Positions 53,834-62,730 are shown, counted from the stretch's first letter. The stretch is 64,000 nucleotides of DNA from Escherichia coli (GCF_046105845.1 NZ_CP151004.1), one strand, 5' to 3'. Program-made: numbers and translations. The notes: generated by a model from the sequence alone, not told the origin.

Positions 53834-54081
53834 TGTCAGTCCCTCCATTAGGCATGAACAATGAGTCTACGTTAAAACATAACCTCAAATTAGTATGTGG
53901 ATTTTGATATCACTTATGCAAAAAATTCATTAATAATGTAGGACTGAAACCTCTCTATTTTCGGGGACAACGAAGCAGACGCTACCAGTGCTTTTGCCTT
54001 GGGCCTTGCTGTTTTTGATACACTTAGGGCCCAGGGCATAACGAAAATGTGCGATATGACAAAGAATTAATGGAGAATGTG

Positions 54082-54939
54082 ATGATCAGGCAGAAGATTC
54101 TACAGCAGCTCCTGGAGTGGATTGAGTGCAATCTCGAGCACCCTATTTCAATCGAAGATATCGCACAGAAATCTGGCTACAGCAGACGCAACATCCAGCT
54201 TCTGTTCCGAAATTTCATGCATGTGCCTTTGGGAGAATACATTCGCAAACGAAGGCTTTGTCGCGCCGCCATTCTTGTCCGGCTCACCGCGAAATCTATG
54301 CTTGATATTGCACTCTCTTTGCATTTTGACTCACAGCAGTCATTCAGCCGCGAATTTAAAAAGTTATTCGGCTGCTCTCCCCGTGAATACCGCCACCGTG
54401 ATTATTGGGATCTCGCAAATATCTTCCCTTCTTTTTTAATACGTCAACAGCAAAAGACGGAGTGTAAATTAGTCAACTTTCCTGAGACACCTATTTTTGG
54501 CGATTCATTTAAATATGACATTGAAGTGTCGAATAAATCACCGGATGAAGAAGTCAAACTGCGACGTCATCATTTAGCCAGATGTATGAAGAGTTTTAAG
54601 ACGGATATCTATTTCGTCTCCACATTCGAACCGTCAACAAAATCGGTCGATTTGCTCACAGTTGAAACTTTTGCCGGTACGGTATGCAAACAAACCGATT
54701 CAGAGATGTCGAAAGAGTGGACAATTAACCGAGGACTGTATGCCTCTTTCCGCTATGAAGGTGAGTGGGAGCACTACCCTGAATGGACGCGAAACCTCTA
54801 TCTGATGGAATTACCTGCCAGGGGGTTAGCCAGAGTGAACGGCAGTGATATTGAGCGATTTTATTACAATGAAAACTTCGTCGAAATTGATAGCAATAAC
54901 ATTGTTTGCGAAATTTTTATCCCCGTTCGCCCGGTTTAG
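54082..54939 (+). CDS. ykgA: AraC-family transcriptional regulator YkgA
   Basis: In-frame starts at 54049 (GTG), 54070 (ATG) and 54082 (ATG, with GGAG 6 nt upstream); N-terminal AraC HTH (ISIEDIAQKSGYSRRNIQLLFRNF). Confidence 0.75.
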   Translation: MIRQKILQQLLEWIECNLEHPISIEDIAQKSGYSRRNIQLLFRNFMHVPLGEYIRKRRLCRAAILVRLTAKSMLDIALSLHFDSQQSFSREFKKLFGCSPREYRHRDYWDLANIFPSFLIRQQQKTECKLVNFPETPIFGDSFKYDIEVSNKSPDEEVKLRRHHLARCMKSFKTDIYFVSTFEPSTKSVDLLTVETFAGTVCKQTDSEMSKEWTINRGLYASFRYEGEWEHYPEWTRNLYLMELPARGLARVNGSDIERFYYNENFVEIDSNNIVCEIFIPVRPV

Positions 54940-54993
54940 CTGTAGCGATGTTTACATGAATTTATAACGAGACTACTGTCAGGCAATTCAATA

Positions 54994-55026
54994 AATAATG
55001 GCGTTGAAGATGTCAACGCCATTATT
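54994..55026. terminator. Hairpin between convergent ykgA and fdeC (candidate bidirectional terminator)
   Basis: AATAATGGCGTTGA-AGATG-TCAACGCCATTATT, perfect 14 bp arms, flanked by T/A-rich sequence. Confidence 0.45.
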
Positions 55027-55059
55027 GTTTATTAGAATGTTACTTTCATATTCTTAATA

Positions 55060-58000
55060 TTATTTCATCGCCTCCTCGCCCTTTGCCGTATCGGCATCCA
55101 CCGCGGTTATGGTCACCGTCACTGGCTTCATTTCGTACCCGCCATACGTCAGGGCGTTAAATGTAAACGTATAGACACCTGGCTTGTTGGTACTAAATTT
55201 ACGCGTGATTTTTCCGCTCACGAAATGGTCATTTTTCGACGGCAGGAATTGATAATCCTTCTCCGTCACTCCTTCCGGAGCCTCAATGTCGACCCACACA
55301 TTCCCCCCAACAGGGTTATTTGCCGAGAACAGGGTAACCGTCATTGTTGCGGTCTGTACCCCATCCGCCACCAGAGAAGTCACATCAGATGATGCGGCGA
55401 GCACCGCGTTTTTATCATCCGCGACGAATTTAGATTCAGCAGTTTTCGTCGATTCCTGACCGTTGGCCTGTTCCACTTTCGCCGTGAGTGTATATTTCGC
55501 TGCGACAGTGGTCGTGGCGGTGAAAATAGCCTGCCCTTGCTCATTAGTTTTCGCCGTCCCATCGGGATCCAGAGCTAAATTTGCCGGGCTGGCAGTCAGC
55601 GTCACCTCGCTATCTTTCAACAGGTTGTTATTGGCATCAGTCACCGTAACTTTATACGTCTGTTTGGCTTTGCCGTCCGCCAGTGCATAGTTGCCAATCA
55701 CCTCAATACTGGAAACGGTTGCGGTAGCCTTATCGGCTACAAACGTTATAGTCTGCGTATTCGAAGGCTGGCTATTCCCTGCCGATGCCGTGATCTCATA
55801 CGTTCCGGCAGTCACTGAAACCACCTGCAACTCTGCTTTCCCCTCATCGTTGGCTTTCACCCAGACATTATCGCCTGTAAGCGGCTTGACACCCCGGGGC
55901 AGATTAAAGGTCACCAGAGTTCCTGGAACAGGGTTACCGTTTTTATCCTCAACGGTCGCCGTCAGCGTAAAGGCATCTTTGCCGTTTGCCACTTTTTGAA
56001 CGGCGGTGTTAACCTGCAGGTTTGCCTGACCGGTGCTGGCATCCGCGTTGAATTTCACCGTGACCGTCTTCTGAGAGTTTTTCACCACGGCCGCGATTTC
56101 AAGTTCCCCTGCAACGGTTGATATCAACTCAATATCCGCTTTACCTGCCGCATTGGTTGTTACTGTATTCCCCGTATTGCTAGTCACACCCTGCGGTAAA
56201 GTCAGCGTAACTTCTTGCCCCTGCAACGGGTTACCATAGCTGTCCACGACGGTCAGGGTTATCTGGTTAGCAGACTGTCCATTAGCCAGTTGGTTATTAA
56301 CCTTCACTGTCATATCACGAATCTCAGCCTGAGAAGCGTCACCTGCAACGTTCAGCACCAGTGGCTGAGCAACGGCATTTTGGCCGTTCACTCGCGGCAT
56401 CACAGACAACTGACCCGCAGCCGATCCCAGCGTTAAGGTCGCAACATAGATGCCGTTACTTTGCTCTGTCCAGCTTCCTGCTGAAGGACGCTCACTCCCC
56501 GTGCTGGCGGCACCGCTAAACACTGGTGCATCTGGCTTCAGCCCGGTGACCGGGTTCCCGTACGCATCCTTCACGGTGAAGGTGAGTTCCGTCGTCGTTT
56601 TAACCGTTGGAGTCTTATTGTCCGCAACAAGCGTAGAGTTCGCTGATGACATCTCCCCGGCGATGACCGTCAACTGCGCGGCTTCGGTGGCTGCTGGCTG
56701 GCCGTTGAAGAGAGGCATGACACGAAGCTCGCCCGTCTTTCCGCCTGTGGTCAACGTAGCAACATAGGAACCGTCACCTTTTTCGGTCCAACTGGAAATA
56801 GTCGCCCCTTCAGAGGCGGTCCCCGTCAAACTTGCCGACAACGAAAGACCACTGATAGCGTTGCCATGCGCATCTTTCGCCACCAGCGTCACGGTTGTGC
56901 TTTCACCGGCTTTTACGTGATCTTCTGCGACAGAGACTTTCGACTGGTTTGAAGATAACGCATCAGCCACCACGGTTACTTTTGCCGCGTTTGCTGCCGC
57001 ATCCTGTCCATTTAGCTTCGGCATAACTTCTAATTCACCCGCCGTAGAGCCGAGAGTAATCTGCGCAGTCCACGTTCCATCACCATTATTTGTCCAGCCA
57101 GATGCTGTAGAACCTACAGCCGCAGCACCCGCTAATGACGGCGCTTCCGGCGTGAGGCTGGTCACAGGGTTGTCATAGGCATCTTTTGCCGTCCAGATTG
57201 CCGTAACTGTACCGCCAACCACCGGTTTATCAGGATTCAGTGTGATGGACGAATGTGCTGCATCAAGCGGCCCGGCAACAAACTTCAGCGTTTGTTGTAA
57301 TGTGCCCAGCTGATACTGCTCGCTGAAGGCACGCACAACAACGTTTCCGGCACGGGTCGAAGAAACCGTGGCGCTGTAAACCCCAGGTTTTATTTCCGAA
57401 ATGGCACCAACGGTAACACCATTAGTGTCTTGCGGAACAAGTCGCAGGCGGCTGGCTTCTCCCGTCACCGGATTACCCTCGGAGTCCACCGCAGTCAGCG
57501 TCAGCGTGTAGGCTTGCTGACCATCAGCAACCACGTCACCTGACAGCTCGTTAGCGCTCAGGGTGGAGTTTGCCACATCCATCATCGTGGCCCGCAGTTC
57601 TGCAGTGACGGTTTTGCTCATGCCATCAACGCTAACAGTAATCGTTGCCTCACCTGACTGCGTTCCGGTCGTAAAGACAGACTGGTACACCCCTGCTTCA
57701 GTTTCGGTGAACTCACCCAGTGTGGGCTGTGCCTGTGATTTAGTGGCCTTCAGGGTACGAGTCACAATATTTCCAGCCGGTTTGAAGGTTAGTTCAGTCT
57801 TGATCTGATCTTTCATGCCCGTGACTGGCTGGCCCTCGGCGTCGCGCAGAGACAGCACCAGCGGCTTTTGCTCATTACCGTTAGCAAGCATTTGAATACG
57901 GCTCTGACCGTCAAGCGTTAACGCCGTACGATCGGCGCTCATACCAGCTCCGCTAATAACCACTTCTGTCTGCACACGTTTCGAGGCATTGCCTTTGTTA

Positions 58001-59313
58001 TCGTAGGCAATCGCTGAAATCGCATAATAATTGTCTTTGCCTGGACGATAAGCCGGGAGCGTTACTTGCCACTGACTACCCTGACCGGTAATTTTGCCAC
58101 CTTCAGCCAGTAATGACGGCGCTTCCCACTGCACATTTTTCAGTCCGTGAGTTGCTTTGCTGACCACAAGCCCCAGGGAAACCGTCTGACCGCCCTTACC
58201 TTCAATCCGCTCAGGCAGAGCAATACGGATCACTTCAGATTTGCGGTACTCAAGAACGATGTTGTTATTACGCTCAACCAGGTCATAGCGGCTGCCTGCC
58301 AGCATTCGACGCTCGCGAATGCTGTCTGTATCGAGTTGTTTTTGCAGAGGTTCGCCAATCCGATAATTAACTTCCAGGCCAAAGCGAGTGTCATTCTCAC
58401 CACTCTTGCCCTGCTTATGCCCGGCGCTCAGTGTCAGAAGAGGCACTGGTGTATAGGTTACCTCGGCAGAAATAGCATGCGGGTCTTTCTGGCGTTTATC
58501 TTTACCAAACAGCCCGACTTCATCACCATAATACTGCTCATACATCAGGCTTGCGCCAAGCTGCGGCCAGGCAGGTAAATAGCCCTCAGCACGAATATCC
58601 CAGCCATTCGCCGGGCGTTCCTGATAATCCTCAACATCCGGCGATTTTTTCCAGCCAGAAGCCCGAATATAACCATTGGCGCTCAGTTTCAAATAATCGC
58701 GCCAGTATTCCGCACCAACACCAATCCGGGTATGACTACGGGATAAATCATGATCGATAAAAGTATTCACCCCCGCCATCCAGTCATTTCCTGAAAAATG
58801 ACGCCAGCCAAAACCAATATTTGACTGAGTACGATCGTCGGTACGATGTATTGCCCCCTGAGTGAACAACATATTTGTCGGCGTATCATAAATAGGATAA
58901 AGCATTTCCAGCGAAGAATCCTTCAGCGAGAAATCTTTATCGACATTCAGTTTGACGCGCGCAGTACCGTATTTCCCGAGCCACTCCTGAATTTCCTGGT
59001 TAGCTTTAGCGGTGGCCATTCCGGTAATAAAGTTACGTGTCGCATCGCTATCTGGCTGACTGCTTAAAAATGTCCCGGCATTTGCGGCAAACGACGCGAC
59101 ATTTTTCTCCACATTATTATCAGCAGCTACTGTGGTATTTTCCATGCTCAAACGTGGCTGAACCGTATGCTGCGCACGTGCTGCCATTACTGGCGTAAAG
59201 GTGACAGCGAGTGGAAAAAGAACCTGAACAGAGATATTTGCCCACGCCACGCAGCGGGCCAGAACTGAATAACGAAATCGTGGTTGTTTATGACCTGTTT
59301 TATAACGTGACAT
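55060..59313 (-). CDS. fdeC: Intimin/invasin-like inverse autotransporter adhesin FdeC (EaeH), intact
   Basis: Uninterrupted 1417 aa ORF with ATG start; N-terminal signal and beta-barrel region followed by many bacterial Ig-like repeats. In K-12 the ortholog eaeH is recalled to be disrupted by IS3. Confidence 0.9.
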   Translation of the reverse strand: MSRYKTGHKQPRFRYSVLARCVAWANISVQVLFPLAVTFTPVMAARAQHTVQPRLSMENTTVAADNNVEKNVASFAANAGTFLSSQPDSDATRNFITGMATAKANQEIQEWLGKYGTARVKLNVDKDFSLKDSSLEMLYPIYDTPTNMLFTQGAIHRTDDRTQSNIGFGWRHFSGNDWMAGVNTFIDHDLSRSHTRIGVGAEYWRDYLKLSANGYIRASGWKKSPDVEDYQERPANGWDIRAEGYLPAWPQLGASLMYEQYYGDEVGLFGKDKRQKDPHAISAEVTYTPVPLLTLSAGHKQGKSGENDTRFGLEVNYRIGEPLQKQLDTDSIRERRMLAGSRYDLVERNNNIVLEYRKSEVIRIALPERIEGKGGQTVSLGLVVSKATHGLKNVQWEAPSLLAEGGKITGQGSQWQVTLPAYRPGKDNYYAISAIAYDNKGNASKRVQTEVVISGAGMSADRTALTLDGQSRIQMLANGNEQKPLVLSLRDAEGQPVTGMKDQIKTELTFKPAGNIVTRTLKATKSQAQPTLGEFTETEAGVYQSVFTTGTQSGEATITVSVDGMSKTVTAELRATMMDVANSTLSANELSGDVVADGQQAYTLTLTAVDSEGNPVTGEASRLRLVPQDTNGVTVGAISEIKPGVYSATVSSTRAGNVVVRAFSEQYQLGTLQQTLKFVAGPLDAAHSSITLNPDKPVVGGTVTAIWTAKDAYDNPVTSLTPEAPSLAGAAAVGSTASGWTNNGDGTWTAQITLGSTAGELEVMPKLNGQDAAANAAKVTVVADALSSNQSKVSVAEDHVKAGESTTVTLVAKDAHGNAISGLSLSASLTGTASEGATISSWTEKGDGSYVATLTTGGKTGELRVMPLFNGQPAATEAAQLTVIAGEMSSANSTLVADNKTPTVKTTTELTFTVKDAYGNPVTGLKPDAPVFSGAASTGSERPSAGSWTEQSNGIYVATLTLGSAAGQLSVMPRVNGQNAVAQPLVLNVAGDASQAEIRDMTVKVNNQLANGQSANQITLTVVDSYGNPLQGQEVTLTLPQGVTSNTGNTVTTNAAGKADIELISTVAGELEIAAVVKNSQKTVTVKFNADASTGQANLQVNTAVQKVANGKDAFTLTATVEDKNGNPVPGTLVTFNLPRGVKPLTGDNVWVKANDEGKAELQVVSVTAGTYEITASAGNSQPSNTQTITFVADKATATVSSIEVIGNYALADGKAKQTYKVTVTDANNNLLKDSEVTLTASPANLALDPDGTAKTNEQGQAIFTATTTVAAKYTLTAKVEQANGQESTKTAESKFVADDKNAVLAASSDVTSLVADGVQTATMTVTLFSANNPVGGNVWVDIEAPEGVTEKDYQFLPSKNDHFVSGKITRKFSTNKPGVYTFTFNALTYGGYEMKPVTVTITAVDADTAKGEEAMK

Positions 59314-59863
59314 TGAGATAATTTCCTGATGAACGAATTAACGAACATAGGCAGACACAAATAATGGCGTCTGCTTGTCAGAAAAACCGGGGATTTCCCG
59401 GTTTCCTTTTCCGCAGAAAAGGAAATACCTTTATGTAAGAAAGTACACCGCCACCTAATATATCCAGTGTCTGTAGCCACTCATCAGGTGGTTGGGCGCG
59501 GGATTATATTTTTATTTATGGGTAAAAATTTAGCTTTTTGTGCAAGTTATTAAATAGATACTTAAGTTATATTTCTTACTCTGCGGGCAGTGAATAATTC
59601 ATTATTAAGAGTGAATAATAATGACCTGTCTTTAATTAATCGCTATTGGGAATACGTCGAAGTAGGTATATACACCAGGATAAACCAATATATTTTTTAT
59701 GGATATTCATTTTCCTTCATCAGACTGTGAATTGCAGGGATATCGAACTTGCACGACTCATCGCAACACTCAAACAGATTTATGAATTTCGTTCATAACC
59801 CCTGACAAATCCTGCCGTCTAATCGAGCTTTTCCCTTTACGTTATGCTTCTCATGAACGATAA

Positions 59864-62730
<2,867 letters not shown>

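Follow-up and report, generated by a model that had tools for sequence, protein, structure and literature searches.

A conserved, structured leader upstream of the adhesin gene fdeC in Escherichia coli and its possible role in cis regulation

The fdeC gene and the hairpins upstream of it

We analyzed a stretch of 64,000 nucleotides from Escherichia coli (GCF_046105845.1, NZ_CP151004.1), which we call the window, and we count positions from its first nucleotide. On its minus strand, the window carries the adhesin gene fdeC, also known as eaeH, and upstream of the start codon lies a predicted leader whose three hairpins are the subject of this work (Table 1). An initial annotation of the window had proposed a single intimin/invasin-like open reading frame (ORF) of 1417 amino acids, intact and free of any insertion sequence. 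This is borne out by the ORF itself, by its domains and by an alignment to the FdeC protein of avian pathogenic E. coli (APEC) strain O1. That alignment, which serves as the comparison to an FdeC of extraintestinal pathogenic E. coli, gives 93% identity over 1415 amino acids. It is colinear with a single gap of one amino acid, so the window gene has no frameshift or truncation.

The domain composition is that of an inverse autotransporter. The Pfam model PF11924 (IAT_beta), which represents the inverse-autotransporter beta-barrel, matches residues 76-350 with an E-value of 3.2e-109, and the passenger consists of tandem immunoglobulin-like domains, with nine Invasin_D3 and four Big_1 stretches found using Pfam. 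The solved FdeC fragment 4E9L aligns to residues 595-1008 with 831 bits, and an identical protein in strain N3 is named "inverse autotransporter adhesin FdeC" in RefSeq. Going by these similarities, the window gene is FdeC, a type Ve inverse autotransporter adhesin, in an ordinary allele. The annotation had also stated that eaeH is disrupted in K-12, which is correct: in strains BW25113 and MG1655, only an N-terminal stub of ~290 codons is left of fdeC, with IS3 after it. Nesta et al. (2012, PMC3324786) already described how broadly fdeC is conserved and that it is a pseudogene in K-12, so the intact gene and its K-12 disruption are published knowledge. Compared to the FdeC/EaeH adhesin of that work (Protein Data Bank entry 4E9L), the window has the same gene, domain set, locus and K-12 pseudogene, with no notable difference.

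The region from 59200 to 59900, which comprises the fdeC-akr2 intergenic region and its flanks, is 100% identical to strain N3 and is carried by 5047 of 5426 complete E. coli genomes. In a comparison of window positions 1-50000 with the N3 sequence NZ_CP031609.1 at one fixed offset, the match broke down from base 1, although fdeC and its neighbors are reproduced at that offset. Homology of K-12-type strains to the window ends at 59864, ahead of positions 59865-59900. Between fdeC and ykgR, these strains lack two aldo/keto reductase genes and a LysR gene, and have the short pseudogene ykgP instead.

Table 1. Coordinates of fdeC, its predicted leader and promoter elements, and a nearby regulator gene in the window
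Feature	Position	Strand	Basis or remark
fdeC coding sequence, intact, 1417 amino acids	55060..59313	minus	ATG start; ORF call, Pfam, RefSeq, alignment
Shine-Dalgarno (SD) region UCAGGAAA	59322..59329	minus	predicted to pair with the U-tract
Hairpin 3, GCAGACGC-N8-GUGUCUGC	59351-59356 / 59369-59374, 6 bp	minus	sequence differs in the E69-type allele and Kosakonia, pairing kept
Anti-SD segment UUUUCUGA	59385-59378	minus	complementary to SD region, duplex -7.2 kcal/mol
U-run and tail UUUUUCUGA right after hairpin 1, terminator-like U-tract	59378..59386	minus	sequence
Hairpin 1, AAACCGGG-AAAUC-CCCGGUUU	59384-59391 / 59397-59404, 8 bp	minus	loop varies, stem kept
Hairpin 2, UUUCCUUUUC-UGCG-GAAAAGGAAA, -11.7 kcal/mol	59402-59411 / 59416-59425, 10 bp, 4-nt loop	minus	
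Conserved leader core, 134 nt (region of covariance model R1)	59311..59444	minus	conservation compared with fourfold-degenerate sites
Variable 5' part of leader	59445..59499	minus	stem-loop predicted in each lineage; drifts at about the fourfold-degenerate rate
-10 hexamer, perfect TATAAT, no recognizable -35	59503..59508	minus	
Marbox-like box CTTGCACAAAAAGCTAAAT	59528..59546	minus	18 of 19 positions of AYnGCACnnWnnRYYAAAY; overlaps the -35 position
Rob-like AraC-family regulator gene, HTH_18 and GyrI-like domains	54082..54939	plus	convergent with fdeC

Upstream of the start codon, the annotation had described three consecutive perfect inverted repeats. All three are present at the places it gave, within 59351-59425, and are 100% complementary; the repeat at 59402-59425 is slightly longer than had been written. 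On RNA of fdeC sense, hairpins 2 and 1 abut. Hairpin 1 (CCGGG-AAAUC-CCCGG, with a possible AAA/UUU extension) is followed by UUUUUCU, and together these have the form of an intrinsic terminator located about 65 nt before the ATG. Our terminator scan did not list hairpin 1, which may be due to its A-U extension being counted as part of the stem.

The region is more stably folded than expected from its composition. For an 86-nt piece with the hairpins, the predicted free energy is -34.6 kcal/mol, compared to -18.8 +/- 3.4 kcal/mol for dinucleotide shuffles (z -4.7), and one of 200 shuffles was as good. By itself, this piece folds equally well on the two strands; for the 190-nt leader, the z-score is -5.4 on the fdeC-sense strand versus -2.9 on the opposite strand. 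The leader occurs in 5035 of the 5426 complete genomes in approximately single copy (median 1, highest 2), which rules out a repeat or mobile element such as a repetitive extragenic palindromic or enterobacterial repetitive intergenic consensus sequence. There is no match to Rfam at E <= 1 on either strand across 54000-61000.

Conservation of the leader as RNA structure

We compared the leaders of ten E. coli strains, two other Escherichia species, a divergent E. coli allele that we call E69-type, and Kosakonia sacchari. Relative to the window, the leader core is 79% identical in Kosakonia, 92% in the E69-type allele and 96% in E. whittamii. The corresponding values for fourfold-degenerate sites in the first 450 codons of fdeC are 45%, 69% and 81%. 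The core thus evolves 3-4 times more slowly than these sites across Escherichia and K. sacchari, and this difference is clear evidence that the core with all three hairpins is under purifying selection.

The structure is conserved together with the sequence. The Kosakonia leader is 71% identical overall and has the same architecture, and when folded alone, it adopts the same arrangement with a z-score of -5.9. RNAalifold applied to 9 leaders yields one shared consensus. For a model of 40 base pairs on an alignment of 11 leaders, 98.2% of the cells are standard pairs, compared to 30-53% when the partners are slid relative to each other. Compensatory changes are seen in each hairpin: U-A to C-G in hairpin 2 of Kosakonia, G-C to A-U in hairpin 1, and G-C to A-U, twice, in hairpin 3. 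In Kosakonia, the sequence of hairpin 3 has been replaced, and a hairpin still forms at the same place. In the K-12 lineage, a C-to-U change in hairpin 1 results in a U.G wobble. Because several such one-sided changes give U.G or G.U pairs, and would give A.C mismatches on the other strand, the structure that has been selected is that of RNA with the polarity of fdeC. On this comparative evidence, the three hairpins are conserved RNA stem-loops on the fdeC-sense strand.

The annotation had suggested that the repeats could form alternative RNA structures or protein-binding sites that regulate fdeC. The part of this suggestion that concerns RNA is supported to the extent that the hairpins are selected structures of the sense strand, as indicated by the compensatory and G.U changes, the Kosakonia architecture and the conservation of the core. 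However, we did not find a mutually exclusive conserved fold, so the "alternative" part of the idea is not supported. A role in protein binding is unlikely for hairpin 3, given that its pairing is retained in Kosakonia with a different sequence, but hairpin 2 is still a candidate, as it is a perfect palindrome with one symmetric change. Three features described here go beyond the annotation: the resemblance of hairpin 1 and its U-run to an intrinsic terminator, the complementarity of this U-run to the SD sequence, and the conserved marbox-type promoter a short distance upstream.

The leader is specific to fdeC orthologs. Covariance model R1 matches solely upstream of these orthologs, and it has no match upstream of approximately 75 paralogous inverse-autotransporter loci in other genera. 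With this result and the lack of matches in the next closest relatives, we ruled out that the leader is common to the inverse-autotransporter family. A metagenome scan with variants of hairpin 2 retrieved 32 loci, none of which matches the leader model at E <= 0.01, and we take these loci to be chance matches of a 20-mer. A second protein search provided no intermediate FdeC relatives that could serve as additional lineages for covariation.

The two most divergent members of the comparison also differ in their surroundings. The Kosakonia sacchari FdeC ortholog is 80% identical in the N-terminal query region and 82% identical over the first 444 aligned codons. In the Logan assembly, this ortholog is full-length, with 1625 amino acids (L093:2420-7297); in the NCBI Kosakonia assembly, it is broken into pieces of 522 and 397 amino acids. 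The DNA flanking fdeC in Kosakonia has no similarity to E. coli, and homology starts at the promoter box, about 285 nt before the ATG. The presence of fdeC, promoter, leader and a Rob-like regulator in an unrelated context suggests, at the level of sequence, that the whole module has moved horizontally. The protein of the E69-type allele is 91% identical to that of the window. Its DNA upstream of the marbox-like box is unrelated to that of most E. coli, with homology only from the box onward, which points to a recombination boundary at the edge of the promoter.

Promoter elements and a candidate activator

Our promoter scan found no good sigma-70 promoter in the region upstream of fdeC. However, two short blocks, CTTGCACAAAAAGCTAAAT and AAAAATATAATCCCG, are invariant in every lineage (14 promoters). 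The former resembles the marbox consensus AYnGCACnnWnnRYYAAAY as quoted in PMC3709825. The spacer between this box and the TATAAT is exactly 19 nt in 11 of the 14 promoters, and its sequence is not conserved. The micF promoter has the same geometry: its forward marbox is exactly 19 nt from the -10 hexamer, as measured from the annotated micF 5' end. Based on the placement of these elements, transcription probably starts at ~59496 (+/-2), which would yield a leader of ~185 nt and would be upstream of all three hairpins. We also considered a sigma-32 promoter, CTTGCAC...CCCCAT, which can be read in K-12-type strains, and we rejected it because CCCCAT is absent from the window, E69-type and Kosakonia promoters.

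Within the spacer (59509-59527, minus strand), a run of C nucleotides varies in length among strains. It is C3 in the window, B2 and O157, C5 in K-12, and C6, C7 or C8 elsewhere, and these alleles set the distance from marbox to TATAAT at 19, 20 or 21 nt. Since this distance is otherwise constant between genera, alleles with long C-tracts may have changed promoter activity or may be prone to slippage.

The Rob-like gene, which we take to be ykgA in K-12 nomenclature, encodes a protein whose match to the RobA model, at 195 bits, falls short of that model's cutoff of 380. A gene that is 65% identical is syntenic with fdeC in Kosakonia too. We infer from this arrangement that the Rob-like neighbor is a candidate activator at the marbox-like box. 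The literature that we searched contains no link between ykgA and fdeC regulation, and does not list fdeC in the Mar/Sox/Rob regulon.

Between the putative transcription start and the core, we considered a possible leader peptide of 9 codons in the 5' stem-loop (AUGAGUGGC...). This candidate was rejected, as the E69-type allele has ACG in place of its AUG, and in Kosakonia the region has been replaced. Just past hairpin 3, an upstream ORF starts at a conserved AUG (59348-59346, minus strand); it is 48-54 codons long, is open in all lineages and overlaps the fdeC start out of frame. It has no SD sequence, and it is probably open by chance through its overlap with the conserved N-terminus of fdeC. 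On the opposite (plus) strand, the promoter scan reported a promoter-like site, TTAACG-16-AATAAT, inside the leader (59338-59365), and hairpin 2 was scored as a terminator-like site (59401-59426). These two sites could specify a very short antisense transcript; however, the evidence from G.U pairs favors the sense strand.

Possible function of the leader

The predicted structure connects the hairpins to the ribosome-binding site. For E. coli, both the minimum-energy fold and the consensus fold contain a helix between the SD region and the U-tract, which encloses hairpin 3, and the same helix is predicted independently for Kosakonia. Two further helices are predicted: UAUCU in the spacer (59320-59316) pairs with AGGUA (59430-59426), and AUGU (59313-59310), which covers the AUG, pairs with ACAU (59436-59433). 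Additionally, the 5' arm of hairpin 2 contains AUUUCCU, which is complementary to the SD sequence AGGAAAU and is therefore a second possible anti-SD.

Published data on FdeC expression provide a context for these structures. In vitro, no FdeC is produced, and its induction occurs upon host contact (PMC3324786). In enterohemorrhagic E. coli, it was detected only at >=39 °C (PMC11143625), and APEC FdeC was induced at 42 °C relative to 37 °C from a native plasmid fragment with the native promoter (Aleksandrowicz et al. 2024, PMC11143625). Alkaline pH is a further condition under which expression was seen (PMC11143625). With just 18 nt upstream of the marbox-like box, the fragment still confers induction by heat, so the determinants are expected in the promoter, the leader or the coding sequence. 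Our putative promoter placement is consistent with the fragment. The title of Easton (2014), as cited in PMC11143625, states that H-NS represses fdeC.

We therefore propose the following model. Transcription of fdeC would proceed from the weak TATAAT promoter that lacks a -35, helped by an activator at the marbox-like box, which might be the neighboring Rob-like regulator and/or MarA, SoxS or Rob. The transcript would begin at the site proposed above and contain the three hairpins in its last, conserved 134 nt. Hairpin 1 and the U-run might act as a weak intrinsic terminator or pause site. In transcripts that read through, the same U-tract would pair with the SD region, enclosing hairpin 3, while segments further upstream would pair with the spacer and AUG, such that the ribosome-binding site would be closed by default. 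The leader would thus be a post-initiation lock on top of H-NS silencing. Because the helices are rich in A-U and G.U pairs and the terminator stem is weak, we suggest that both blocks might be lifted by heat (39-42 °C) or by a factor that binds the pyrimidine-rich anti-SD segments.

Our confidence varies among the parts of this model. We estimate a probability of roughly 50% that the region, with its three hairpins, is a regulatory leader acting in cis. Within that reading, the hairpins probably help to keep a silenced FdeC off until a signal such as heat arrives, and a repressive leader fits the observation that FdeC is silent at 37 °C and expressed at 39-42 °C. Termination at hairpin 1, occlusion of the SD in vivo and the identity of the signal are inferred. 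We have much less confidence in the specific version in which the leader is a thermosensor than in a regulatory leader in general. A further version is a switch with two layers, in which the Rob-like YkgA acts at a class II marbox and the leader's U-tract has two roles, forming the tail of a heat-labile terminator and the anti-SD strand; we regard this version as a long shot.

It is important to consider several observations that weigh against a regulatory leader of this kind. As a terminator, hairpin 1 is weak: its energy is -5 to -8.6 kcal/mol, and in several lineages no more than 4 of its pairs are G-C. Our search across the leaders did not find a conserved antiterminator or any alternative pairing for its arms. 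The covariation is modest: 3 pairs exhibit changes on both sides, compared to 1.4 in shuffles, 46 of 500 shuffles reach that number, and only three independent lineages lie behind it. Since the SD:U-tract, spacer and AUG helices are invariant on both strands, covariation is neutral with respect to them. The predicted occlusion of the fdeC SD ranks 10 among 48 neighboring genes, and we therefore dropped the idea that it is a statistical outlier. The predicted probability that the SD is unpaired rises from 0.055 at 30 °C to 0.078 at 37 °C and 0.098 at 42 °C, although the thermodynamic model is a weak test of such behavior. In the tables examined of Adams (2021, PMC7815308), there is no 3' end for eaeH, ykgR or ykgP, and those of Ettwiller (2016) and Yan (2018) have no transcript-end entry for the locus. 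Finally, the marbox consensus is degenerate and matches the window 2 times, with 1.5 matches expected by chance. The match itself is thus not significant, and the box is supported by its position and invariance only.

These difficulties raise the question of what else the conserved region might be. It could encode a separate small RNA of ~115-125 nt that extends from ~59496 to the U-tract of hairpin 1 near 59382 and that acts in trans or is derived from the 5' untranslated region (UTR). Such an RNA would consist of a 5' stem-loop of variable sequence, a conserved, single-stranded stretch rich in pyrimidines, hairpin 2 and a Rho-independent terminator. Expression of fdeC itself would then depend on read-through or on a weak promoter within the last 65 nt. 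This layout, i.e., a stem-loop, a conserved unpaired stretch and a terminator hairpin with U5, is that of Hfq-type small RNAs, and the would-be seed and terminator are the most conserved segments. A second promoter or operator could also lie in the 40 nt before the ATG, which are invariant, and there is a weak TATGTT at 59349-59344. However, we found no sigma-70-like promoter with at least 8 of 12 matching positions downstream of hairpin 1, the candidate -10 is poorer still in Kosakonia, and the terminator, as noted, is weak. Moreover, there is no match in Rfam and no report in the literature searched, and the K-12 3'-end tables examined have no entry for the locus even though K-12 retains the whole leader. 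We consider a small RNA unlikely. Another explanation that requires no switch is a constitutive structural leader, whose terminator would insulate fdeC against read-through from the AT-rich upstream region or whose hairpins would stabilize the 5' end of the mRNA, with all regulation of fdeC occurring at the promoter via H-NS and an activator. H-NS and an activator site would be sufficient in principle, and the missing alternative fold and weak predicted temperature dependence agree with this explanation. On the other hand, the hairpins follow the conserved promoter and therefore cannot insulate it, and conservation over 134 nt that includes the segments complementary to SD, spacer and AUG is more than a stabilizing hairpin needs. 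This explanation, too, strikes us as improbable.

A role of the repeats in DNA would be different in kind. They could serve a dimeric regulator, for example one of the neighboring LysR- or AraC-type proteins, as palindromic operators, or they could be architectural sites that contribute to silencing by H-NS. Hairpin 2, with a perfect 10-bp palindrome around a 4-bp center and a symmetric change in Kosakonia, would suit an operator, and the 86-nt piece folds equally on either strand. The locus has several regulator genes (PMC3324786), and H-NS is a repressor of fdeC according to the title mentioned above (Easton 2014, cited in PMC11143625). However, a sequence-specific operator would not tolerate the replacement seen in hairpin 3, the changes to G.U preserve pairing only in sense-strand RNA, and the hairpin loops vary freely. 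Also, the hairpin region has 40-46% GC, whereas it is a tract further upstream, with 26-29% GC, that resembles an H-NS target. We therefore see a function in DNA as very unlikely, and favor a cis-acting RNA leader.

As such a leader, the region can be compared to several established systems. FourU-type RNA thermometers are found upstream of Salmonella agsA, Yersinia lcrF and Vibrio toxT. Like these, the fdeC leader would place a U-run against the AGGA of an SD using A-U and G.U pairs, upstream of a temperature-induced virulence or adhesion gene. Unlike them, its anti-SD is 50 nt away and doubles as the U-tract of a terminator, and what the helix closes is a multibranch domain instead of a small local hairpin. 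The fdeC switch would occur from 37 to 39-42 °C rather than from 25 to 37 °C, the computed melting is shallow, and Rfam has no match. In leaders of the rpoS type, an upstream segment occludes the ribosome-binding site and small RNAs open it. By analogy only, upstream fdeC segments are positioned against the SD, spacer and AUG, with ~15 bp possible between 59436-59420 and 59327-59310, but no activating small RNA is known or predicted for fdeC. The combination of a GC stem-loop and a U-run in a long leader upstream of the ribosome-binding site is reminiscent of 5'-leader attenuators and premature intrinsic terminators in the 5' UTRs of E. coli, as surveyed by Adams et al. (2021, PMC7815308). In contrast to such attenuators, the fdeC leader has no recognizable leader peptide, riboswitch aptamer, other sensing element or conserved antiterminator. 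The promoter resembles class II Mar/Sox/Rob promoters such as micF in having a marbox that is in forward orientation, differs from the consensus at one position and is 19 nt away from the -10, and in having no -35 hexamer; MarA, SoxS, Rob or the Rob paralog syntenic with fdeC would be candidate activators.

The conserved leader and the module of marbox and Rob-like regulator are not present in Rfam or in the literature that we searched, a search that did not extend to the work of Easton (2014) on fdeC regulation. The fdeC control region is nonetheless of a familiar kind, i.e., a regulatory 5' UTR that is structured and follows a promoter dependent on an activator, and nothing in it is categorically new.

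As an adhesin, FdeC is conserved broadly across E. coli and is of interest as a vaccine candidate, but it is hard to express in the laboratory, and its known controls so far are H-NS, temperature and host contact. Our analysis adds cis elements that can be tested: a promoter of the marbox type, together with the Rob-like regulator inherited alongside it; a conserved leader that contains a terminator-like hairpin and anti-SD segments; and a variable poly-C spacer. If these elements do not work as proposed, fdeC is simply a known gene whose structured 5' UTR is nothing out of the ordinary. If they do, they would offer a means to switch on FdeC for antigen production and colonization studies, and the leader would be a natural example of a terminator U-tract that doubles as an anti-SD. 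Should the two-layer switch be true, one melting event near 39-42 °C would free termination and translation together, and this would explain why the production of FdeC is limited to bovine or avian body temperature or to contact with the host.

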